A stretch of 29,284 nt of DNA, from NCBI GenBank assembly GCA_964603125.1, contig CAZRUA010000041.1, positions 1 to 29,284 on the forward strand, read 5' to 3'. Below, one piece after another: positions 19,620 through 29,284 of the stretch. The notes under the pieces were generated by a model that saw nothing but the letters and a program-made list of their open reading frames with translations, had not been told where the DNA came from and did not search any database. This DNA comes from an uncultured Flavobacteriaceae bacterium. GTDB lineage: Bacteria; Bacteroidota; Bacteroidia; B-17B0; Aurantibacillaceae. Made by a program: the position numbers and the translations under genes. Numbering within the stretch: the first letter of the stretch is position 1; each line of letters opens with the position of its first letter.

Positions 19620-21023
19620 ATGGGAAAAAATAGATTGAAGGGAAAACATTTAAGGAAAATAGATTTCCCTTCGGACATAGCTAAAAGTTTAGCATTAAAT
19701 ATTATGACGAAACATTTTAAACATGTTTCAAACGAAGAAAAATTACAAATAATACAAAACGTTCTTTTAAATCCTGAACAATACTTAGAAGATGAACATC
19801 TAAAACCCTTGTCGATTGCCTTAGTTGGGAAGCCAAAAATGAAAACTGATTATGAAGTTCACATGTTAAAACACAGTGGTGATTTTACCATTTATGGTCT
19901 ACGTCATATCGGACAAAATGCAATTCAACAAATGGAAGCAGCGATGCGATTACCCATCTCGATGAAAGGAGCTTTAATGCCTGATGCTCATCATGGATAT
20001 GGTTTGCCAATCGGCGGTGTACTAGCAACAAATAACGCAGTAATCCCTTTTGGAGTAGGCCTGGATATTGGTTGTCGAATGGCTTTGAGTATTTACAAAC
20101 TTCCAGAAGATTACATTCAACGCAAGGAGTATGATTTACAAAAAGCATTGCGTAGATATACACATTTTGGAAATGATGGGACACTTGATTTTGAAGTAGA
20201 TCATGAAGTGCTTGAGCGCCCTGAATTTCAAGCCACTGAATTACTCCGAAGATTACATGGTAAAGCGTGGTTTCAACTAGGTTCATCAGGCACAGGAAAT
20301 CATTTTGTTGAATTTGGAAATGTAACAATTGCTCAAAACAATACATTGAATTTACAACCTGGGAATTACATTGGTTTACTATCTCACAGCGGTTCAAGAG
20401 GCATGGGTGCTGCCATAGCAGCAACTTATACTAAAATAGCAATGCAAAAATGCAAACTTCCGCGTGAAATGCAATCAATGGCTTGGTTAAGTTTAGATGA
20501 AGAAGCTGGTCAAGAGTATTGGTTATCCATGAACTTAGCGGGTGACTATGCAAAAGCCTGTCATGATGTGATTCACAAAAACCTTGAACGTGTAATGGGC
20601 TTAGAAGCTATATGCAAAGTTGAGAATCATCACAATTTCGCATGGAAAGAAATACACGACGGTCAAGAATTGATTGTACACCGAAAAGGCGCAACGCCAG
20701 CAAACAAAGGTGAATTCGGTATCATACCAGGAAGTATGAGCAGCAATGGATACATAGTAAGTGGTTTAGGATTACAGGGTTCAATTAATTCAGCATCGCA
20801 TGGGGCCGGCCGAAAAATGTCACGTAAAGAAGCAAGAGAGAGTATAACAAAATCTTCGATGACAAATTTATTAGCCGAACAAAGTGTGAAATTAATTGGT
20901 GGCAGCGTAGAAGAGGCTTCATTTGCTTACAAGGATATTGAGACTGTTATGAGCTGTCAACAAGACCTAGTAAAAATAGAAGGTTCATTCACTCCAAAAA
21001 TTGTAAGGATGAACAAAAGTTAA
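19620..21023 (+). CDS. rtcB: RtcB-family 3'-phosphate/5'-OH RNA ligase (PrfH-associated RtcB2-type)
   Basis: DAHHGYGLPIGG and GSSGTGNHFVEFG are metal and GTP-binding motifs. The His-rich core is typical of RtcB. It sits immediately upstream of prfH, as in the E. coli rtcB2-prfH pair. Confidence 0.85.
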   Translation: MGKNRLKGKHLRKIDFPSDIAKSLALNIMTKHFKHVSNEEKLQIIQNVLLNPEQYLEDEHLKPLSIALVGKPKMKTDYEVHMLKHSGDFTIYGLRHIGQNAIQQMEAAMRLPISMKGALMPDAHHGYGLPIGGVLATNNAVIPFGVGLDIGCRMALSIYKLPEDYIQRKEYDLQKALRRYTHFGNDGTLDFEVDHEVLERPEFQATELLRRLHGKAWFQLGSSGTGNHFVEFGNVTIAQNNTLNLQPGNYIGLLSHSGSRGMGAAIAATYTKIAMQKCKLPREMQSMAWLSLDEEAGQEYWLSMNLAGDYAKACHDVIHKNLERVMGLEAICKVENHHNFAWKEIHDGQELIVHRKGATPANKGEFGIIPGSMSSNGYIVSGLGLQGSINSASHGAGRKMSRKEARESITKSSMTNLLAEQSVKLIGGSVEEASFAYKDIETVMSCQQDLVKIEGSFTPKIVRMNKS

Positions 21024-21123: not shown

Positions 21124-21774
21124 ATGGAAACAAAAATATTACAAATAACATCAGGTAGAGGCCCCGCAGAATGCTGTTTAGCTGTTGCATTGACCTTGAA
21201 AGAAATATTGAAGGAGGCTAAAGAAAATAATTTAGCATGTGAAGTAATTAACCGCACACCATATAACATAAACGGAACTTTAGCTTCCGCATCTGTTAAA
21301 ATAAGTGGGAAAAACATTTCTCCATTCATTAATTCTTGGCAAGGTGTATTAGGTTGGATTTGTCAAAGTCCTTTCAGAACGATGCATAAAAGAAAAAACT
21401 GGTTCATAGGAATTGAAGTCTACGACTTATCATCCACTTCACAATGGAGTGAAAAAGATGTTTACTATCAAACACTTCGATCTTCAGGTCCAGGTGGTCA
21501 AAACGTAAATAAAGTAGAAACAGCTGTAAGAGCCGTACACAAGCCTTCAGGCGTGCAGGTTTTAGCTAATGAATCTCGTTCGCAAATGCAAAATAAAAAA
21601 ATTGCGTTAGAGCGATTAAAAGAATTATTTATACAATGGCAATTAAACAATTTAAGAAAAACAGAAAAGCAACAATGGCAAAATCATAATTGTGTTGAAA
21701 GAGGTAATCCAAAAAGAATTTACAAAGGAATCAATTTCAAAAAAGAAAAAATTGGACGTAGTCGAATCAATTGA
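21124..21774 (+). CDS. prfH: Peptide chain release factor homolog RF-H (PrfH)
   Basis: GGQ motif in context (LRSSGPGGQNVNKVETAVRAVH). The N-terminal GPAECCLAV, WICQSPFRTMHKRKNWFIGI and C-terminal ERGNPKRIYKG all align with my recollection of E. coli PrfH. Length is 216 aa. Confidence 0.85.
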   Translation: METKILQITSGRGPAECCLAVALTLKEILKEAKENNLACEVINRTPYNINGTLASASVKISGKNISPFINSWQGVLGWICQSPFRTMHKRKNWFIGIEVYDLSSTSQWSEKDVYYQTLRSSGPGGQNVNKVETAVRAVHKPSGVQVLANESRSQMQNKKIALERLKELFIQWQLNNLRKTEKQQWQNHNCVERGNPKRIYKGINFKKEKIGRSRIN

Positions 21775-22437: not shown

Positions 22438-23439
22438 ATGAGGAAATTAGCTTCAATACAAAAAATTAAAAATATAGAACCAATCGAAGGTGCAGATTCA
22501 ATTATGAAAGCAAGTGTTTTAGGTTGGCAATTAGTAATTAGAAAAGATGAATTTAAAATTGGTGATTTATGCGTTTACTGTGAAATTGACAGTGTATTAC
22601 CCGATAAACCAGAATTTGAATTTATCCGTGCTAAAACTAATCGTATTAAAACTATAAAATTACGTGGTCAAATTTCACAAGGTATCTGCTTTCCATTATC
22701 AGTTTTACCAGAAGGTATAGAGATTGTTGAGGATTTAGACGTTACAGAAATAATTGGTGTAACAAAATTTGAACCGCCAATTCCTGCTAACTTAGCTGGT
22801 GAGATTAAAGGCTTATTTCCTTCATTCATGCCTAAAACAGATGAAACTAGGGTGCAAGTTTTACAACATGTTTTAGATCAATACAAAGGATTAACCTGTT
22901 ACATTGCTGAGAAATTAGATGGAAGCTCTGTAACTTATTACTTCAAAGATGGTGAGTTTGGAGTTTGTTCGCGGAATTTAGATATAGTTAAAAACGAAGA
23001 AAACTCAATGTGGAAATTTGCAATTGAGAACGATTTAGAACAAAAGTTAAAATCATTAAACAAAAACATTTGCTTACAAGGTGAAATAATTGGTGAGGGT
23101 ATTCAAAAAAATAAATACAAGTTAAAAGGTCAAACGGTTTTCTTTTTTAATGTATTTGATATTGATAAATATGAATACTTATCATTAAGCTACTTTAAGC
23201 AAATAATAAATGATTTGAACTTAAAGCATGTTCCAATTATTGAAGATCAATATGAGTTAACGAACAATATGGATGAATTAATTTTAAAATCTAAATTAAA
23301 GTCGACGTTAAACAAAGATACAATCGCTGAAGGTATTGTTATCAGGCCAACGACAGAGATGATTGAAAAACATAAATTACAAGGACGCTTGTCGTTTAAA
23401 GTTATCAATCCAGATTTTTTAATAAAATACGACGAGTAA
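22438..23439 (+). CDS. ATP-dependent RNA ligase, Rnl5-like (DraRnl/NgrRnl-type: N-terminal OB-like domain plus nucleotidyltransferase domain)
   Basis: Motif I KxDG (AEKLDGSSV), motif IV EGIVIR, motif III-like FFFNVFDI and a motif V-like RLSFKVINPD. The N-terminus MRKLASIQKIKNIEPIEGADSI ... GWQLV resembles the N-terminal domain of Deinococcus/Naegleria nick-sealing RNA ligases. Confidence 0.65.
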   Translation: MRKLASIQKIKNIEPIEGADSIMKASVLGWQLVIRKDEFKIGDLCVYCEIDSVLPDKPEFEFIRAKTNRIKTIKLRGQISQGICFPLSVLPEGIEIVEDLDVTEIIGVTKFEPPIPANLAGEIKGLFPSFMPKTDETRVQVLQHVLDQYKGLTCYIAEKLDGSSVTYYFKDGEFGVCSRNLDIVKNEENSMWKFAIENDLEQKLKSLNKNICLQGEIIGEGIQKNKYKLKGQTVFFFNVFDIDKYEYLSLSYFKQIINDLNLKHVPIIEDQYELTNNMDELILKSKLKSTLNKDTIAEGIVIRPTTEMIEKHKLQGRLSFKVINPDFLIKYDE

Positions 23440-23547
23440 TTAAGAATGTAGAATGATGAATTCAGAACTAAAGCGACAAATAAAATTCAGTTTTTTATAT
23501 CTACCGAATTACGGTTGAATGGAGATCGTATGCTTAACTAAGCATAA

Positions 23548-23580
23548 GCCCGGTCTCAAAAGGATCGGGCTTTTTGTTTT
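23548..23580 (+). terminator. Terminator after the Rnl5-like ATP-dependent ligase gene
   Basis: agcccg-(13 nt)-cgggct followed by ttttgtttt. It is preceded by a second hairpin, tatgctta/taagcata, at 23530-23547. Confidence 0.5.
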
Positions 23581-23596
23581 ATTGCCTTCTTAGCCG

Positions 23597-23614
23597 ATCC
23601 CGATTGTAATCGGG
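23597..23614. repeat. Variant copy of the CCCGAT-N4-ATCGGG palindromic hairpin (TCCCGATTGTAATCGGGA)
   Basis: cccgatt/aatcggg is a 7-bp inverted repeat. It shares its arms with the 18-bp palindrome at 23649, 23732 and 26642. Confidence 0.5.
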
Positions 23615-23648
23615 AAGGCACTTGTCTTAGAAAAGAAAGGTGAGTTCG

Positions 23649-23666
23649 TCCCGATAGCTATCGGGA
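23649..23666. repeat. 18-bp perfect palindrome TCCCGATAGCTATCGGGA (copy 1)
   Basis: Exactly self-complementary. An identical copy lies 83 bp downstream. Confidence 0.6.
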
Positions 23667-23672
23667 TTGCAG

Positions 23673-23761
23673 AAGGCACAATGCACTTGTGGCGGAAATG
23701 GTATACGCAACAGACTTAAACTCTGTTATGAATGTTGGTTCTCCCGATAGCTATCGGGACT
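23673..23761 (+). tRNA. tRNA-Leu(TAA)-like type-II tRNA-like gene with non-canonical T-arm region (possible pseudo-tRNA)
   Basis: Acceptor GCACTTG/CATGTGC with one T-T mismatch. D-arm GCG-(11 nt with GG)-CGC. Anticodon arm AACAGA/TCTGTT with loop CTTAAAC (anticodon TAA). The T-arm position is occupied by the 18-bp palindrome (23732-23749) instead of a GTTCRANYC loop. Confidence 0.3.
23732..23749. repeat. 18-bp perfect palindrome TCCCGATAGCTATCGGGA (copy 2), embedded in the Leu-like tRNA-like element
   Basis: Identical to the copy at 23649-23666. Confidence 0.6.
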
Positions 23762-23767
23762 ATCATG

Positions 23768-23854
23768 TGCACTAAGAGGAGAAATAATCGAGCAGGGCTC
23801 GAACTTGTTTGCTAAACAATGTGTCCGCCTAATGGTGGTTGAGTGTCGGGAACT
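23768..23854 (+). tRNA. tRNA-Ser(GCT)-like type-II tRNA-like gene with non-canonical D-arm and T-loop
   Basis: Acceptor GGAGAAA/TTTCTCC is perfect. A CTTGT/ACAAT stem carries the loop TTGCTAA (anticodon GCT). The variable arm is CCGCC-TAAT-GGTGG. The T-arm is TGAGT-GTCGGGA-ACTCA and lacks the TTC T-loop signature. Confidence 0.3.
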
Positions 23855-23868
23855 CATTTCTCCGCAAA

Positions 23869-23951
23869 GGAAGATAGCGACCAGTGGTGGTCAGGCAGAC
23901 TTGAAATCTGCAGCGGTCTGAAAGGACAGGGTTCGACTCCTATATCTTCCG
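23869..23951 (+). tRNA. tRNA-Ser(TGA)-like type-II tRNA with weak T-stem
   Basis: Acceptor GGAAGAT/ATCTTCC is perfect. Anticodon arm GCAGA-CTTGAAA-TCTGC gives anticodon TGA. The variable arm is GTCT-GAAA-GGAC. The T-loop TTCGACT is canonical but the T-stem has only 3 bp. The D-arm GACC-AGTGGT-GGTC has one extra nucleotide at each junction. Confidence 0.4.
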
Positions 23952-23982
23952 CAAGTATTAAATTAAAATTGTTCTTTAAACA

Positions 23983-24055
23983 CGATTTATAGTATAATGG
24001 ATAACACACCCGATTACGACTCGGGAGACTTAAGGTTCGAGTCCTTATAAATCGA
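23983..24055 (+). tRNA. tRNA-Arg(ACG)
   Basis: 73 nt. Acceptor CGATTTA/TAAATCG. Anticodon arm CCCGA-TTACGAC-TCGGG. T-arm TAAGG-TTCGAGT-CCTTA. The D-stem has one A-C mismatch. The gene is AT-rich, and CCA is not encoded. Confidence 0.65.
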
Positions 24056-24060
24056 CGAAA

Positions 24061-24134
24061 TGAGATATAGCTCAACAGGTAAGAGCAGGTGCCTTATACG
24101 CACAAGGCTATAGGTTCAAATCCTATTATCTCAA
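24061..24134 (+). tRNA. tRNA-Ile(TAT)
   Basis: 74 nt. Acceptor TGAGATA/TATCTCA (U1-A72). D-arm GCTC-AACAGGTAA-GAGC. Anticodon loop CTTATAC (anticodon TAT). T-arm ATAGG-TTCAAAT-CCTAT. One G-A mismatch closes the anticodon stem. Confidence 0.6.
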
Positions 24135-24143
24135 CAAATAAAT

Positions 24144-24216
24144 CGGTCTATAGCTCAGATGGCAGAGCACCGTCCTTTTAAGACGGGAGTCCTTGGTTCG
24201 AATCCAAGTAGGCCGA
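24144..24216 (+). tRNA. tRNA-Lys(TTT)
   Basis: Fully canonical cloverleaf. Acceptor CGGTCTA/TAGGCCG (one G-U). D-arm GCTC-AGATGGCA-GAGC. Anticodon arm CCGTC-CTTTTAA-GACGG. T-arm CTTGG-TTCGAAT-CCAAG. Confidence 0.8.
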
Positions 24217-24226
24217 CAAATAAAAA

Positions 24227-24299
24227 CGGGATGTATTTCAATTGGTAGAATACGTGTTCTGGAAACATGAGGTTGCAGGTTCGAGTCCTGCCATCCCGA
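24227..24299 (+). tRNA. tRNA-Pro(TGG)-like with C at position 33 and an A/U-rich 3-bp D-stem
   Basis: Acceptor CGGGATG/CATCCCG. T-arm GCAGG-TTCGAGT-CCTGC. Anticodon stem CGTGT/ACATG with loop TCTGGAA (C33, anticodon TGG). An alternative fold gives a 9-nt loop. Confidence 0.5.
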
Positions 24300-24304
24300 C
24301 GAAT

Positions 24305-24378
24305 GGTGAAATTAGTGTAATGGCAAACACAAAAGCCTGTGAAGCTTTTAATACAGGTTCGATTCCCTTATTTCACCC
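24305..24378 (+). tRNA. tRNA-His(GTG)-like (G-1 encoded) with weak T-stem
   Basis: G-1 plus GTGAAAT/ATTTCAC, with C73. D-arm GTGT-AATGGCAA-ACAC. Anticodon arm AAAGC-CTGTGAA-GCTTT. The T-loop TTCGATT is flanked by a 3-of-5 paired stem (ACAGG/CCCTT). Confidence 0.5.
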
Positions 24379-24381
24379 ATT

Positions 24382-24454
24382 GGACAAGTAGCAAACGTGG
24401 TGTATGCGCTGGACTGAAAATCCAGAGAAAGTGGTTCAACCCCACTCTTGTCCA
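24382..24454 (+). tRNA. tRNA-Phe(GAA)
   Basis: Acceptor GGACAAG/CTTGTCC. Anticodon arm CTGGA-CTGAAAA-TCCAG. T-arm AGTGG-TTCAACC-CCACT. 3-bp D-stem with an 11-nt loop and a 4-nt variable loop. Confidence 0.65.
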
Positions 24455-24521
24455 CAAAAATTATTAGTAAAGCAAAAGCTATCTGGCTAAAAAAGAGATA
24501 GTAAATAATTAAAACAAAAAA

Positions 24522-24857
24522 ATGAAAACAACTTTCGAATTCAGAAAAAAGTTTTTAGAAGGTAGAGATGATTCAGGAAGATTCATTGTAACATCATACC
24601 GAACTGGTAAGACGTATTTTATCGAACCTATTGGCCCTGATAGAGCCGCTGATTGGGGAAGTTACAATCCTTCAACAGGAAACATCGAAAACAAAAAAGG
24701 TTTTGATAAACATAGAGGTGCAATTGATGAAAAAGATTCTCTAATTACGAAGGAAAATGGATTCCTTGATATTAGATATTCGGGAGTAGGAGGATCACCT
24801 TTTAGTGTAATTGAAAAAATGGATGCTCAGTATCCCAACATCAATAAAATTCACTAA
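24522..24857 (+). CDS. Hypothetical 111-aa protein embedded in the tRNA array
   Basis: ORF with a proper ATG. I recognise no motif. It lies between tRNA-Phe and tRNA-Tyr and is followed by the hairpin gcggaatt ... aattccgc at 24869-24892. Confidence 0.45.
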   Translation: MKTTFEFRKKFLEGRDDSGRFIVTSYRTGKTYFIEPIGPDRAADWGSYNPSTGNIENKKGFDKHRGAIDEKDSLITKENGFLDIRYSGVGGSPFSVIEKMDAQYPNINKIH

Positions 24858-24868
24858 TGATACTTCTA

Positions 24869-24892
24869 AAAATAAAGCGGAATTTGAAAAAT
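24869..24892 (+). terminator. Hairpin after the 111-aa ORF (8-bp stem, no T-tract)
   Basis: gcggaatt-tgaaaaatt-aattccgc. Confidence 0.3.
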
Positions 24893-24905
24893 TAATTCCG
24901 CAATT

Positions 24906-24989
24906 GGGAATGCGCTAACGATGGTGAGTTAGACTGGTCTGTAACACCAGGGTCATTTGACTTAATAGGTTCGAATCCTATCATTCCCA
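24906..24989 (+). tRNA. tRNA-Tyr(GTA), type II
   Basis: Acceptor GGGAATG/CATTCCC. D-arm CTAA ... TTAG. Anticodon arm CTGGT-CTGTAAC-ACCAG. Long variable arm GTCA-TT-TGAC. T-arm ATAGG-TTCGAAT-CCTAT. Position 8 is C. Confidence 0.65.
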
Positions 24990-25034
24990 CAACAATTATC
25001 GTTTCAAGCCGAAATTGTTATATAGTTCTTTGAT

Positions 25035-26039
25035 TTAATAGTTTTTCAATGCGTCTTTAAATCGCTCTTGCATTTTAAGGCTTAATCTTCTTGGACTTAG
25101 CACTTTTACATGCTCACCATAACCGAGCAGTTCTCGTTCTAACTCAAAGTTCCAAATAACTTTAATAGAAAAGATTGTTCCATCATCTTCTTCTTTTAAT
25201 ACTTCTTGGGAAACGTGGAGTGGTTTTGTAATAATATATGGTGCATGTTCTTTAACAAACTTAAGCACTATGGTTTGGGCTCTTTGATTAATGTTTTTAG
25301 TTACTCCAATTGTATCGGCGTAATAATCATTAACATTAAAGTCAGGCTTTACATACTTCTCTGAGTTTAATTCCTGAATATTGAGTATTCTATCCAGAGC
25401 AAGATTCATAATCGTTTTATTCTTTCGAGTTGCACCAAGAATAAACCATCTATTACGATACTCTTTAAGCAAATACGGATAAAAAATAATTTGCTGAGGA
25501 ATACGAGCTTTAAAAGATTGATAAGAAATTTCAAGCGTTTTTTTGCTAATAATTGCCTTATGCAAAATATCGATATACTTTAAACCTTTCACGAGCACAT
25601 TCTTTTCAAACTCAATATAGGATTTACCTTTATGGCTTTGTTTGTAGAGTTTATCTTCAAGTCGAGTTACCATTCCGTTAAGCTCCTCAAAAAAACCAAA
25701 TGCTTTAAACTGCTTTAAAACATCAACTACTTCATTCAAAGTATTCATGTCTTGTTGAGTTAAAGGATTATTTGTGATACTGTAGTCTTTCTCGGCGTAA
25801 CTATAATACTTTTTATCACTTACAATAATTGGCGCATTGTACCCAAGCTTTTCGCTTCGCATATTATAAATATCGAGTTGTAAAGTTCGTCGACTAACGC
25901 CAGTAGTAATTCCTTCGTATTCATAAAGCGCATCAGAGCAAGCTTCCATAAGATCTTCTAATGTCCATTTACGAAAACGGTTTTGCAAACAGTTATCAAT
26001 TGTTTTATAACGAATAAGGGCTAATTTGTTTATTGACAT
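25035..26039 (-). CDS. WYL-domain transcriptional regulator (N-terminal HTH, central WYL, C-terminal extension)
   Basis: 334 aa. The WYL-domain signature RNRWFILGATRKNKTIMNLALDRILNI gives the W-F/Y-L triad and an (L/F)RLDRI motif. The N-terminal MSINKLALIRYKTIDNCLQNR is HTH-like. Confidence 0.65.
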   Translation of the reverse strand: MSINKLALIRYKTIDNCLQNRFRKWTLEDLMEACSDALYEYEGITTGVSRRTLQLDIYNMRSEKLGYNAPIIVSDKKYYSYAEKDYSITNNPLTQQDMNTLNEVVDVLKQFKAFGFFEELNGMVTRLEDKLYKQSHKGKSYIEFEKNVLVKGLKYIDILHKAIISKKTLEISYQSFKARIPQQIIFYPYLLKEYRNRWFILGATRKNKTIMNLALDRILNIQELNSEKYVKPDFNVNDYYADTIGVTKNINQRAQTIVLKFVKEHAPYIITKPLHVSQEVLKEEDDGTIFSIKVIWNFELERELLGYGEHVKVLSPRRLSLKMQERFKDALKNY

Positions 26040-26247
26040 GATTTCGAATTGAGAATGATAACCAAAAATACAAAAATCAACGCAATGTAAATGCGCAGTT
26101 CAAATAATTCTGAAATGAAATAAAATTAATTCCTTTCATTTCCAGTCAATTATCAAAATATGTAAAGAATTCATTTACTACGCAAATTGACTGCGCACTT
26201 CTTTAATTCCTTTGTATCCATATAAAAACAAAAAATGAAATCGACAT

Positions 26248-26565
26248 ATGAATAAATATATAAGATTAAAAGAAGAGTTAGAAAAAATAGGAATAGGTAA
26301 AATGAAATGCTTTGGAAACTCAATGCTTCCAATTTTAAAAAGCGGCTCATTGCTAACCTTTAAAAAAGAAAATGATTACAAAGTAAATGATATTGTGTTT
26401 TGTAAAGTGAAAGGGAGATTCATCGATGCGCACCTAATTACAAAGATTGATGCAAACAGAGGGTATCTGATAGCAAACAATCATGGTTATGAAAATGGTT
26501 GGACAAAAATAATATATGGAAAAGCCGTATACAGTGAATTTAAGAATGAAAGTAAAAAACTATAA
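26248..26565 (+). CDS. S24-family (LexA/UmuD-like) peptidase domain protein, stand-alone
   Basis: GNSMLP matches the G-[DN]-S-M-x-P catalytic Ser motif of S24/S26 peptidases. A downstream Lys (KVKGRF) could serve as the general base. Only 105 aa, so the peptidase domain alone. Confidence 0.45.
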   Translation: MNKYIRLKEELEKIGIGKMKCFGNSMLPILKSGSLLTFKKENDYKVNDIVFCKVKGRFIDAHLITKIDANRGYLIANNHGYENGWTKIIYGKAVYSEFKNESKKL

Positions 26566-26641
26566 TTGACAAAAGCTCATCCGCCGCGATGGAGTTGAGC
26601 ACCTGCCGATTTTAGAATCGGCATTAATCGGAAGGAAGTAG

Positions 26642-26659
26642 TCCCTATAGCTATCGGGA
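26642..26659. repeat. Third copy of the 18-bp palindrome, with one mismatch (TCCCTATAGCTATCGGGA)
   Basis: 17 of 18 identical to the copies at 23649 and 23732. It lies in the ORF-free region 26566-27610. Confidence 0.5.
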
Positions 26660-26873
26660 GAATAATATATTAACAATTGGTTAGCCAAATATGGCGCACC
26701 AGATAGATGTAAAATTGTTGCTATGCTCTTGTTAAAGCGTAGTTAGTATAAGGAGTGGTTAAAGGCCACAGCTCGATAACAATAAGGGCAAAGTTTGTAA
26801 AAGCCTATACGTTACATAGCATCTATCAAAGTACTGGTTTAATAAATGGAATAAATCCCATTGAAACCTAAAA

Positions 26874-26942
26874 ACATTTCAGGCTATGGCAGCCAATTGC
26901 TCTCCAAAAGCAAAGGACAACGTTCGATTCGTTGGAAATGTG
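26874..26942 (+). tRNA. tRNA-Trp(CCA)-like with shortened D-arm
   Basis: Acceptor ACATTTC/GAAATGT is perfect. Anticodon arm TTGCT-CTCCAAA-AGCAA gives anticodon CCA. T-arm CAACG-TTCGATT-CGTTG is canonical. The D-arm GGCT-ATGGC-AGCC is irregular. Total length 69 nt. Confidence 0.35.
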
Positions 26943-27201
26943 CCAATAGAATAATAGCAGCTAGGGCAAAGCCTTGTTTAAAACGTAGGAAATTCCCGTT
27001 ATTATTCTAAAAACTTAAAACATTGTTCATTGAAAAACAAAATACTGTTCGGAAGAACAAAAAATCTTCCTCGTGCCAGAGGAAGCGCGATACATAAACA
27101 AAACAATGCCTTGTTGTGGGTTTAAAACGCCCCATAGTATTGTACCAGTAGGAATCAATATACTGCAGCGCCATGTTTAGGGTATTGCTCATGTTGGGGT
27201 C

Positions 27202-27359
27202 AAGGGTTCAATTCCCTTTTTGTTCACAAGGACAAATAGCTCAGTTGGTTAGAGCACAACGCTTAGGTTACGGGTTCGAGTCCCGTCACGATTTCGCTCG
27301 TGTAACTCAATGGTAGAGTAATGGACTGAAAATCCATGCGTAGAAGTTGACTTACTTCT
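27202..27359 (+). pseudogene. String of degenerate tRNA-like modules: a 3' T-arm-plus-acceptor fragment, a D-arm-plus-T-arm module lacking an anticodon arm, and a tRNA-Phe(GAA)-like copy lacking a 3' acceptor strand
   Basis: 27202-27226 is AAGGG-TTCAATT-CCCTT followed by TTTGTTC. 27230-27293 is GGACAAA-TA-GCTCAGTTGGTTAGAGC, 13 nt, ACGGG-TTCGAGT-CCCGT. 27296-27359 is GCTCGTG-TA-ACTC-AATGGTA-GAGT-A-ATGGA-CTGAAAA-TCCAT followed by AGAAG-TTGACTTA-CTTCT. The junctions form hairpins: TTTGTTC/GGACAAA and CACGA/TCGTG. Confidence 0.3.
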
Positions 27360-27610
27360 TTAAAAATAGGTCACCAAAGAATGAGCAAATCATTTCAGTC
27401 AAATTACTAAATGTAAAATGACAGTTGGATTTTTGTCAGGATAGGCAGATACCGTTTTCACAAAGGTTTTGCTTTTTAGGCGTAGTAAACAATTACTTCT
27501 AAAAACCACTATTGGAGGTGCAAACTTAAGCTAAATCTTCACCAAAATTTGATGAAGTGCTTTGCAAGTTCTTTAAATAGAATTAAAAACAAAACATAAA
27601 AACAAATAAA

Positions 27611-28714
27611 ATGATACAAAGAGTAAAAGTTGATGCCTGGAAAAAAGGCTTGGTAATTAAAAACAACAATTTAATTGATGTTTTAAGTGAAGGTACATAC
27701 TGGTTATCTGCAAGTGTAGCTGTAATTAATTATGATATGGCTAAACCATTTGTTGCGCCAATTAACCTTAACATTTTGATGAAAAATCAAAAATTTGCAG
27801 ATGCGGTTAAAATAGTAAACGTAGCCGACAATGAAATAGCATTGCGCTATGAAGGAGATACATTTGTTGAAGTATTAACCCAAGGTAAATACCTCTATTG
27901 GGAAGGTTTGGTAGAACACAAAATAATTGCAATTGACTTGAGTGTTGTGGATATTGATGTTGGCATAGATAAAGCAATACTTACACGTAAAGAGCTTGCT
28001 CCATACATACGCACTTTTGTTATAGAACCTAATGAAAAAGCAATTGTTTATATTGATGGTAAGTTCAACAAAATTGTTGAAGCAGGTTCTTACAGCTATT
28101 GGAAAAACAATACTAACATAGCCATAACAAAAGTTGAAACACGAACCATGCAAATGGAAGTTGCTGGTCAAGAAATACTGACAAAAGATAAGGCCGTAAT
28201 ACGACTAAACTTTTACTTGCAATACAATGTTGTTGACGCTGTTAAAGCAATTTTAAACAACAAGGAGTACGAAAAACAATTGTATGTTTTAATACAGCTT
28301 GCTTTACGTGAATTTGTTGGTTCCATGACCTTAGATGAGCTTTTAGAGAAAAAAGAAAATGTATCTGATTACATATTGGATTCAACTGCTCGAAAAGTTT
28401 CATACTTGGGTGTATTAATAAAAGGTTGTGGTATACGTGATATTATTTTACCTGGTGATATGAAGGAAATAATGAATCAAGTATTGATTGCAGAGAAAAA
28501 AGCCCAAGCTAACACAATTATGCGTCGTGAGGAAACTGCCTCAACACGTAGCTTGCTAAATACTGCAAAGCTAATGGAAGACAATGCGATGTTGTTTAAG
28601 TTAAAAGAAATGGAATATGTAGAAAAGATTGCAGAGAAGATAAATACTATTTCATTATCAGGTGGTTCACAAATTGTGGATCAGCTAAAACAAATATTTG
28701 TCTCTAATAAATAG
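27611..28714 (+). CDS. SPFH (band 7 / stomatin-prohibitin-like) domain protein with ~170-aa N-terminal extension
   Basis: The C-terminal half carries an SPFH-domain pattern (KDKAVIRLNFYLQYNVVD ... REFVGSMTLDELLEKKENVS ... IRDIILPGDMKEIMNQVLIAEKKAQANTIMRREE). Confidence 0.65.
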   Translation: MIQRVKVDAWKKGLVIKNNNLIDVLSEGTYWLSASVAVINYDMAKPFVAPINLNILMKNQKFADAVKIVNVADNEIALRYEGDTFVEVLTQGKYLYWEGLVEHKIIAIDLSVVDIDVGIDKAILTRKELAPYIRTFVIEPNEKAIVYIDGKFNKIVEAGSYSYWKNNTNIAITKVETRTMQMEVAGQEILTKDKAVIRLNFYLQYNVVDAVKAILNNKEYEKQLYVLIQLALREFVGSMTLDELLEKKENVSDYILDSTARKVSYLGVLIKGCGIRDIILPGDMKEIMNQVLIAEKKAQANTIMRREETASTRSLLNTAKLMEDNAMLFKLKEMEYVEKIAEKINTISLSGGSQIVDQLKQIFVSNK

Positions 28715-28742
28715 ATAAAACCCTCATTTCAATTTGGAAGTG

Positions 28743-28813
28743 AGGGATAAAATGCCCTTTCGTCTAACGGCAGGACGTTACTTTTTGACAGTAAATATTG
28801 TGGTTCGAATCCA
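28743..28813 (+). tRNA. tRNA-Gln(TTG)
   Basis: Acceptor TGCCCTT/AAGGGCA (U1-A72, as is usual for bacterial tRNA-Gln). D-arm GTCT-AACGGCA-GGAC. Anticodon arm TTACT-TTTTGAC-AGTAA is perfect. T-arm TGTGG-TTCGAAT-CCACG with one U-G pair. The variable loop is 4 nt. Confidence 0.7.
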
Positions 28814-29284
28814 CGAAGGGCAACAAAAATAAACTTATAGATTATCTGCCGCGGCAGAGTAAAAGCTGCTGTAAAATTACTTAACCGCGAAGTGTGGGGA
28901 TAATTCCGGCGAGCCTTGACGTTGCGAAGAGCTGAGTTTACAGTGCACCGGAAAAGAGAAATCAAAGTAGGGAAGCGTATTTATAGCCATACTATTCAGA
29001 AATGAAAATGGAGGTTCGAATCCCATTAGGGCCGCAGAAAGGGACTGACCTGATAAAAAAGGGTTCAGTCCCTTTGTCATTAAAAGAAAATCGCCCGACA
29101 GACGGGCGATTTCAGCGATTACAGAATTTATTTTTGGAGTTCGAAATGACCCATTTTTTCGATCATAAACAATCCCTTCAGGAAAGACTAATTTTTGCAA
29201 TTTTTCCTTGAGATTTATGCTTCCTTTGAGCCACAATCTCGTGATTTTCAGGCACAATTGGGCTACCTCATGTAGGCTTTCGCA

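Follow-up and report, generated by a model that had tools for sequence, protein, structure and literature searches.

Two serine tRNA genes of probable 8/4 type and two palindrome-interrupted leucine tRNA relics in the tRNA array of a Bacteroidota RNA-repair island

Introduction

What keeps a tRNA-like gene in shape when its T arm no longer resembles that of a tRNA? The question is raised by a 29,284-nt stretch of DNA from an uncultured Flavobacteriaceae bacterium (assembly GCA_964603125.1, contig CAZRUA010000041.1, positions 1 to 29,284; hereafter the window), in which three tRNA-like units, named Leu-UAA, Ser-GCU and Ser-UGA, lie downstream of an RNA ligase gene in an island of RNA-repair genes. 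In an earlier note, made from the sequence alone, they were described as three long-variable-arm tRNA genes with good acceptor and anticodon arms but irregular T arms, possibly selected for something other than translation, for example as decoys for anticodon nucleases. The analysis reported here partly confirms that observation and partly supports its interpretation: selection is present, but probably for translation. We consider it likely that Ser-GCU and Ser-UGA are functional serine isoacceptors of the 8/4 type (8-bp acceptor stem, 4-bp T stem) in an auxiliary array of the RNA-repair island, and that Leu-UAA and a fourth unit, Leu-UAG, have been overwritten by a palindrome.

Detection of the tRNA-like units

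Reading of the sequence between 23300 and 24400 placed the three units on the forward strand at 23683–23771 (Leu-UAA), 23778–23864 (Ser-GCU) and 23869–23951 (Ser-UGA), directly upstream of six consecutive canonical tRNA genes. The span given earlier for Ser-UGA was correct, and those of the other two were 10 nt too low. ARAGORN found nine tRNAs in the window (23983–28824), none of them within 23584–23951, and Rfam at the gathering threshold (GA) returned no match to any of the three units. When matches up to E ≤ 10 were considered, the sole match of Ser-UGA was tRNA-Sec (RF01852; 34.6 bits, GA 47), Leu-UAA matched the general tRNA family (RF00005; 22.5 bits) with its 5′ half only, and Ser-GCU had no match even at this level. 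As scoring with the Infernal tRNA models did not recover canonical T arms, the irregularities seen earlier by eye are real. None of the units combines a score above the RF00005 or ARAGORN threshold with the 7/5 branch and the T54-Psi55-C56...A58 loop of a canonical tRNA.

Two serine tRNA genes under selection for a complete cloverleaf

The minimum free energy (MFE) fold of Ser-UGA (23869–23951) is shaped like a tRNA-Sec. An acceptor stem of 8 bp (GGAAGAUA/UAUCUUCC) is followed by two linker nucleotides, a 5-bp D stem closed by the tetraloop GUGG, a 5-bp anticodon stem with the loop CUUGAAA and an unpaired 26:44 position, and a variable stem of 4 bp. The T arm, with the canonical loop UUCGACU, runs without a spacer into the 3′ strand of the acceptor stem, and nucleotide 73 is G. 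Its stem consists of three standard pairs (G·U, G-C and G-C) and an A·A mismatch, in agreement with the 3-bp T stem described earlier; the stem looks short because the outer pair of what is a 4-bp stem, as in 8/4 tRNAs, is A·A in this clade.

Orthologues of Ser-UGA were found in eight lineages by nhmmer and covariance-model searches, and ARAGORN labels three of them tRNA-Ser(tga). In the alignment of the eight lineages 94.7% of the cells are paired, 12 of the 26 pairs have changed on both sides, and all eight acceptor pairs are paired throughout (100%). A degenerate-pattern search detected the same type in 23 IMG/VR contigs, mostly inside phage tRNA arrays. Across the 26 distinct sequences then available, 97% of the cells are paired and 20 of 26 pairs covary, among them all five D-stem pairs, which close a 4-nt loop NUGG. 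The fourth T-stem pair is A-U in 12 of these sequences, G-C in four and U-A in one. An eighth acceptor pair can form in 25 of the 26, and the pair needed for a 7/5 alternative in 15 of the 26 and in one of the eight sequences of the window's clade. As a separate observation, one viral contig that bears a tRNA of the Ser-UGA type (L183, 5175–5389; loci and contigs used for comparison carry L numbers) has two CUA (amber) tRNAs labelled "Pyl" by ARAGORN, which are possible suppressor tRNAs.

The MFE fold of Ser-GCU (23778–23864) is an 8/4 cloverleaf as well (−31.5 kcal/mol, z −3.9). It has an acceptor stem of 8 bp (alternatively 7 bp and U8) with G73, a D stem of 5–6 bp, a variable stem of 5–6 bp and a T stem of 4 bp (GAGU/ACUC). 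The D loop CRGGG, 3–5 nt long, is not a strict tetraloop, and four of the five D pairs covary. The anticodon stem, earlier called clean, has 6 bp with one bulged nucleotide on its 3′ strand; it covaries, and the canonical 27:43 pair is never Watson-Crick. The T loop was correctly described as GTCGGGA without TTC: the RNA reads GUCGGGA, with U55 and C56 kept and G at both positions 54 and 58. Since the GG of the D loop is kept together with U55 and C56, the elbow contacts G18-U55 and G19-C56 are still possible.

The same searches found Ser-GCU orthologues in seven lineages, where 98.5% of the cells are paired and 15 of the 28 pairs have changed on both sides. With the addition of relatives from phage arrays, found with the covariance model and labelled tRNA-Ser(gct) by ARAGORN, the values are 97% and 24 of 28. 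The T loop is invariant across the seven lineages, save for GUCGGUA in L072, while the stems diverge. The phage relatives carry the ordinary T loops UUCGAGU or UUCGAAU, so GUCGGGA is a derived state fixed in this Bacteroidota clade. Exact and degenerate searches of IMG/VR with the Ser-GCU T arm gave no match, and the loop is thus specific to the clade.

For both genes, none of 500 shuffled controls reached the observed covariation values, and controls slid along the sequence were 36–53% paired. Neither the anticodon loops (U33-NNN-A37) nor G73 nor the first three pairs of the acceptor stem vary in either alignment, and the variable stems, of 4–7 bp, covary. Each gene thereby presents the identity set of seryl-tRNA synthetase (SerRS), namely a long variable arm, G73 and G1-C72/G2-C71/A3-U70, together with a cognate serine anticodon. 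All orthologues lie downstream of RNA ligase genes whose products are 71–80% identical to that of the window, and some of them, as well as some relatives, are labelled tRNA-Ser by ARAGORN. Ser-GCU and Ser-UGA are under purifying selection for a complete cloverleaf. The earlier proposal that helix preservation reflects selection and not decay is borne out for these two genes by covariation in 7–8 Bacteroidota lineages and in phage arrays; it fails for Leu-UAA, as described below. The simplest reading of this selection would be ordinary decoding, and the two RNAs are most likely serylated and used at AGY and UCN codons.

Relation to known tRNA classes

The closest counterparts of the two serine genes are described by Mukai et al. 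(2017, Nucleic Acids Res 45:2776; PMC5389517). There, tRNAs with 8/4 and 9/3 acceptor branches were found as sub-threshold tRNA-Sec hits; their D stems are long and end in tetraloops, their variable arms are long, and nucleotide 73 is G or U. The (8/4) tRNA-Ser with serine anticodons come from bacteriophages, proteobacteria and rumen Clostridia, SerRS accepts both 8/4 and 9/3 tRNAs, and some natural allo-tRNAs are inactive in translation (PMC5389517). We set Ser-GCU and Ser-UGA against this class by its described features. Like the published (8/4) tRNA-Ser, both split a 12-bp acceptor/T branch into 8 and 4 bp, have a long D stem with a very small loop, a long variable arm, G73 and serine anticodons, and lie in clusters of tRNA genes, phage clusters included; Ser-UGA was also detected as a sub-threshold tRNA-Sec hit. 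On the other hand, the genes studied here lie on Bacteroidota chromosomes, whereas the hosts named by those authors are Clostridia, Proteobacteria, Acidobacteria and phages. Compared with the descriptions given there, Ser-GCU differs in its GUCGGGA loop without T54 and A58 and in its bulged 6-bp anticodon stem, and Ser-UGA in the A·A at the fourth T-stem position and in its 5-bp anticodon stem; anticodon stems of more than the canonical 5 bp are a further trait of the class. On this comparison Ser-UGA appears to have the defining features of the 8/4 class that were tested, and Ser-GCU most of them. The irregular T arms of both genes are those that the published 8/4 architecture predicts (PMC5389517).

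The resemblance of Ser-UGA to bacterial tRNA-Sec (RF01852) extends to the acceptor start GGAAGAU, an acceptor stem of 8 bp, a long D stem closed by 4 nt, a long variable arm, the T loop UUCGACU and G73. However, its anticodon is UGA and not UCA, its T stem has 4 and not 5 bp, its branch 12 and not 13 bp, and its score of 34.6 bits is below 47. As anticodon, branch length and score all differ, neither serine gene is a tRNA-Sec. Ser-GCU and Ser-UGA add to a rare tRNA class that is already known, in a phylum and a genomic setting new to it. This extends the 8/4 tRNA-Ser to a phylum where they are physically tied to an island of RtcB, PrfH, RNA ligase, WYL and Y-RNA-like elements. Real tRNA genes in metagenome-assembled genomes (MAGs) of Bacteroidota go unnoticed by the standard tRNA finders, which skews tRNA inventories and estimates of codon capacity.

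Leucine tRNA relics and the palindrome

Long variable arms had been ascribed to all three units, which holds for Ser-GCU and Ser-UGA but not for Leu-UAA (23683–23771). The intact orthologues of Leu-UAA (nhmmer E 2.9e-05; L065 7524–7598 and L071 1520–1594) are 74–75 nt long, fold as ordinary cloverleaves, and have a Leu-like D loop, A73, a variable loop of 5–6 nt and a normal T arm. What looked like the long arm of a type II tRNA-Leu is an inserted palindrome. The unit retains the D arm, the anticodon arm and the acceptor strands, the latter with six of seven pairs and one U·U mismatch instead of the perfect stem reported before. Also retained are GUUGG, which is the T stem's 5′ strand, and UUC; these are followed by the 18-nt palindrome TCCCGATAGCTATCGGGA (hereafter PAL; 23742–23759, no strand assigned) and by CUAU. 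The palindrome takes the place of the T arm's 3′ part, as the earlier note had seen, and CCAAC, the 3′ strand of that stem, is missing. Because a T-stem strand is lost, the acceptor stem has a mismatch, the orthologues are intact and the palindrome is a repeated element, the alignment, the folds and the Rfam match together identify the unit, in our reading, as a pseudogenised standard 75-nt tRNA-Leu(UAA) with a short variable loop.

Two features had escaped the earlier note, namely that the palindrome is repeated, with four copies or variants in the window, and that a fourth relic lies at 23584–23679 on the forward strand. The latter, GCCUUCUUAGCC...AGAAGG, matches orthologous 74–75-nt tRNA-Leu(UAG) genes (nhmmer E 1.7e-05; alignment), and a tRNA-Leu(UAG) gene is first or nearly first in every orthologous array. 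In Leu-UAG a PAL variant (TCCCGATTGTAATCGGGA, 23598–23615) occupies the D loop and PAL itself the T loop after UUCG (23649–23666), and the anticodon stem is defective, while all seven acceptor pairs are kept. Alone, the relic folds as a single long hairpin (−47.3 kcal/mol, z −7.6); a tRNA-like fold in its own right was considered and ruled out by its homology, which makes it a damaged 75-nt tRNA. The PAL copies at 23649 and 23742 are complementary over 19 nt without a mismatch. In a joint transcript they pair along this whole length, and the resulting 19-bp duplex encloses the 5′ two-thirds of the Leu-UAA relic (−74 kcal/mol, z −6.1). Both leucine relics are most likely dead.

At L065 7383–7598, L067 7269–7343, L069 1724–1797 and L071 1407–1594, and in the phage arrays L172, L174, L176 and L184, the leucine tRNAs (UAG and UAA) are 74–78 nt long; their variable loop is short, their D loop is of the Leu type, nucleotide 73 is A, and the first pair is usually G1·U72. 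With their short loops they are class-I-shaped, unlike the normal bacterial type II tRNA-Leu.

PAL and its variants occur four times in the window (23598, 23649, 23742 and 26642), compared with none in 100 shuffles. The copies are not identical, as one has the loop TTGTAA and the copy at 26642 a C-to-T change. The exact 18-mer was found in 46 stretches (L019–L064) of diverse IMG/VR viral contigs with a GC content of 27–49%, several of which carry 2–5 copies each. Outside long open frames lie 41 of the 46 occurrences; some copies show nested half-duplications or belong to larger repeated two-hairpin elements. One copy (L022) is in the D-loop region of a tRNA-Met-like sequence, and in L091/L092 a PAL-like hairpin (L091 1419) replaces an array tRNA-Gln from the anticodon loop to the T arm, with the acceptor strands left in place. 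The possibility that PAL always caps a longer perfect inverted repeat was discarded, since strict extension was seen in one of 46 occurrences, with offset inverted flanks visible by eye in several. Nothing covered the palindrome in an Rfam scan of seven PAL-bearing loci, and a literature search for the sequence found no paper.

In several respects PAL is like the REP/REPIN repeats (Bertels and Rainey 2011; PMC3116915): it is a short perfect palindrome, multi-copy, mostly intergenic, present in many genomes and sometimes nested or half-duplicated. It is unlike them in being only 18 nt long, in that no RAYT or TnpA gene was seen, and in its position in this clade, namely within loops of tRNA genes, where it replaces internal tRNA segments. 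We read PAL as a REP-like miniature repeat, putatively mobile, that would tend toward hairpin loops. As a small, unexplained repeat by which tRNA loops are overwritten, it merits a dedicated survey. The same comparison applies to the "very small mobile repeated elements" of cyanobacteria, reportedly described by Elhai et al. in 2008.

The tRNA array and its genomic setting

The window is part of a bacterial chromosome, as GatB, an ECF sigma factor, MsrAB, carbonic anhydrase and ribonucleotide reductase are encoded further upstream. The best tblastn match of the ligase, with 57% identity in a 735-kb uncultured phage, had raised the possibility of a huge phage; this was overturned by ligase homologues of 70–80% identity in many Bacteroidota MAGs, by synteny and by the housekeeping genes. 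A megablast of 23400–24500 against phage records gave no match. Domain searches and synteny identified, on the forward strand, genes for RtcB (19620–21023) and a PrfH-like protein with an RF-1 domain (21124–21774), and a domain search the RNA ligase gene (PF09414, PF21189; 22438–23439) directly upstream of the array. A regulator with WYL/WCX domains, conserved at orthologous loci, lies on the reverse strand at 25035–26039, and PADLOC detected nothing in the window but this WYL domain. The conserved order is RtcB, PrfH-like, (M41 peptidase, Thg1), RNA ligase, a gap free of genes, an open reading frame (ORF) of 111 codons, WYL, and then TROVE/Ro60 or others. RtcB-PrfH pairs are known to repair ribosomes cut by colicin E3 (PMC9304027, PMC9223846).

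The array lies in this gap at loci where the ligase is at least 71% identical to that of the window. Its usual order is Gln(UUG), a 74–75-nt Leu(UAG), in some cases a 75-nt Leu(UAA), Ser(GCU) and Ser(UGA), followed by Arg, Ile(UAU), Pro, His, Phe, Tyr and Lys. Because loci with ligases of 39–66% identity have no array at this place, save one short contig (L136), the array is a lineage-specific addition. It is about 11–16 genes long; in the window about 11 genes or relics lie within 1.4 kb, with outliers beyond. Downstream of the serine genes follow six canonical tRNAs on the same strand (Arg-ACG, Ile-UAU, Lys-UUU, Pro-UGG, His-GUG and Phe-GAA; 23983–24455), all called by ARAGORN and with Rfam scores of 56–70 bits. 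Next come the 111-aa ORF (24522–24857), which lies within the array, has no Pfam or PADLOC match and is found at the same place in L067, L068 and L069, and a forward-strand type II tRNA-Tyr(GUA) of the usual 7/5 form by ARAGORN and folding (24906–24990). The anticodons of the array are mostly U34 and include Ile-UAU. The set was probably acquired horizontally and appears to be auxiliary.

A leader between the ligase gene and the array (23488–23581, forward strand) is conserved as well. It contains a helix, GGAUUGG/CCRRUCC (GAGAUCG/CGGUCUC in the window), that is kept in eight lineages, partly via changed bases, and overlaps the 5′ arm of an intrinsic terminator at 23546–23572; a weaker second copy is at L072 4104–4171. 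This arrangement suggests a candidate antiterminator/terminator switch, and the conservation of the leader supports regulated entry into the array. Further downstream, at 27262–27326, there is a sub-threshold match to the Y RNA-like family YrlA (39.7 bits, GA 69), flanked by tRNA-fragment-like matches (27152–27359). A TROVE/Ro60 protein is encoded at L067 but not in the window.

The setting recalls the long tRNA arrays described by Santamaria-Gomez et al. (2021; PMC8421152), which occur in several phyla, Bacteroidetes among them. In cyanobacteria rtcB is found among their neighbours, and the Anabaena array is co-regulated with rtcB. The long arrays are induced by translational stress, contain a few pseudogenes and have been considered as possible sponges for toxin RNases (PMC8421152). 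The array of the window is likewise a dense set of presumably extra tRNA genes with some pseudogenes and with RNA-processing neighbours including rtcB, and a role in translational stress is proposed for it too. Unlike the long arrays it is shorter and physically fused to the RtcB-PrfH-Rnl-WYL island, and in place of the direct repeats of the Anabaena array it has the candidate terminator switch and the WYL protein.

Discussion

The results can be brought together as follows. In Ser-GCU and Ser-UGA, an acceptor stem of 8 bp with a T stem of 4 bp would keep the coaxial acceptor/T helix at 12 bp, and SerRS would read the long variable arm and G73. Charged with serine, the two tRNAs would decode AGY and UCN codons. 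They would belong to a phage-like, lineage-specific auxiliary array placed just 3′ of the RNA ligase in a Bacteroidota RNA-repair island (RtcB, PrfH-like, WYL, Y-RNA-like). This array is probably expressed with the repair genes upon damage to the translation apparatus, and may be transcribed together with the ligase gene, or by read-through from it, under RNA-damage conditions. In this genome a small REP-like palindrome would have overwritten D and T loops in the two tRNA-Leu genes with short variable loops.

Several points weigh against this explanation. The fourth T-stem pair of Ser-UGA is A·A in the window's own clade. Within that clade Ser-GCU fits the 8/4 and the 7/5 arrangement (U8 unpaired, U68-A84 as fifth T pair) equally well; the two are separated by a single compensatory case, the relative at L173, in which the eighth pair is A-U instead of U-A and the 7/5 alternative would give U·U, which favours 8/4, while the relative at L182 is plainly 7/5. 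The T loop of Ser-GCU lacks the near-universal T54-A58 pair, so that formation of the tRNA elbow has to be assumed, and general tRNA models give this gene no score. The fixed GUCGGGA loop also offers a natural test of the extent to which a working tRNA can do without the T54-A58 elbow. Serylation and decoding are predictions from sequence comparison, and the auxiliary status of the array is deduced from its patchy distribution and phage-like anticodon set. Finally, the acceptor strands kept in both leucine relics could point to some remaining function instead of damage that is simply recent.

A wider view, which we put forward tentatively and regard as rather improbable, is that the island is a combined "repair and replace" module for translation. 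A WYL-regulated, terminator-gated array would then supply deviant tRNAs beside RtcB, PrfH and Rnl: the 8/4 tRNA-Ser, among them the Ser(GCU) with G54 and G58 in its T loop, and the class-I-shaped tRNA-Leu. With elbow, T loop and arms altered, such tRNAs would evade the toxins that target tRNAs and put the housekeeping set out of action. As a separate and equally tentative idea, PAL could be a very small mobile element with a preference for hairpin loops in single-stranded DNA, which would explain why tRNA genes receive it in their D and T loops.

The RNAs of the array could also act as decoys, sponges or sensors for anticodon nucleases or other tRNA-targeting toxins, or as damage signals, in place of decoding. 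An island concerned with RNA damage would suit such a role; besides RtcB and a PrfH-like protein it holds an RNA ligase, a WYL regulator and, at 27262–27326, a YrlA-like tRNA mimic. The odd T loop of Ser-GCU could change recognition by nucleases. A sponge function was proposed for the operonic tRNAs of the long Anabaena array, some of which are cleaved under stress; however, 23 of the 26 tRNAs of that array are aminoacylated in vivo (PMC8421152). Certain natural allo-tRNAs are translationally inactive (PMC5389517). On the other hand, a decoy would need no more than the targeted arm, while here the entire cloverleaf, acceptor end included, covaries like that of working tRNAs, and identity elements and anticodons are cognate, serine with serine. 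The same tRNA types are also found in phage arrays that supply decoding capacity. No result requires a decoy role for the array RNAs, and we consider it unlikely that they act instead of decoding. The island provides a concrete system in which to ask whether auxiliary tRNA arrays serve as backup or as decoys under ribotoxin or antibiotic stress.

It is more doubtful still that Leu-UAA and Leu-UAG remain functional, with the hairpin tolerated as an extra arm, or excised like an intron and the halves joined by RtcB or the RNA ligase. The idea draws on the kept acceptor strands (seven of seven pairs in Leu-UAG, six of seven in Leu-UAA, and likewise in the PAL-type replacement of tRNA-Gln in L091), on the restriction of PAL to loops, on the two RNA ligases encoded next door, and on engineered tRNAs that tolerate hairpin tags (PMC7590224). 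We rejected PAL as an excisable intron, as excision does not restore the tRNA arms: Leu-UAA would be left without a T arm, having no CCAAC strand, and Leu-UAG with a D loop of 3 nt. In addition, the anticodon stem of Leu-UAG is defective, pairing between PAL copies traps Leu-UAA in the 19-bp duplex, the same 18-mer occurs in many contexts other than tRNAs, and a bacterial endonuclease for such an excision is not known. We therefore retain pseudogenisation by the palindrome as the preferred explanation for the two leucine units.

That all three flagged units are decaying pseudogenes of a horizontally acquired, phage-derived array is highly improbable: the absence of ARAGORN and Rfam calls, the clear damage in the leucine relics, the tRNA-His of the window with its two T-stem mismatches and the tRNA fragments at 27152–27359 speak for decay, but covariation refutes it for both serine genes, which are kept in 7–8 lineages with 12–15 compensated and almost no broken pairs, and with a GUCGGGA loop that is invariant save for the one substitution in L072 while the stems diverge, and ligase identities of 71–80% argue against an origin of the loci from a single population. 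We give just as little credence to the triple palindrome and the broken leucine genes being an assembly or amplification artefact, for although the window is a 29-kb MAG contig and amplified libraries do yield inverted-repeat chimeras, the PAL copies differ (loop TTGTAA; C-to-T at 26642), viral contigs that were assembled independently contain the 18-mer in 46 stretches, L091/L092 contain a PAL-like hairpin, and repeats of 18–19 nt are below the usual assembly k-mer size.

Additional observations

Three further features of the window and of related loci were noted. The tRNA-His of the array (24306–24378) has two non-standard T-stem pairs (ACAGG/CCCUU), an encoded G-1 and C73, and its orthologue in L067 is regular. 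A tRNA-Trp(CCA) at 26874–26945, not reported by Rfam at the gathering threshold, has its CCA end encoded in the gene and a D loop of 5 nt, and its acceptor and D stems are separated by a single nucleotide. In L065, L066 and L070 the array spacers carry a different repeated motif, CGGCGGACACAGUCCG, present at least four times (L065 7760–8080); in that same segment of L065 a spurious ARAGORN call of a tmRNA spans two tRNAs.

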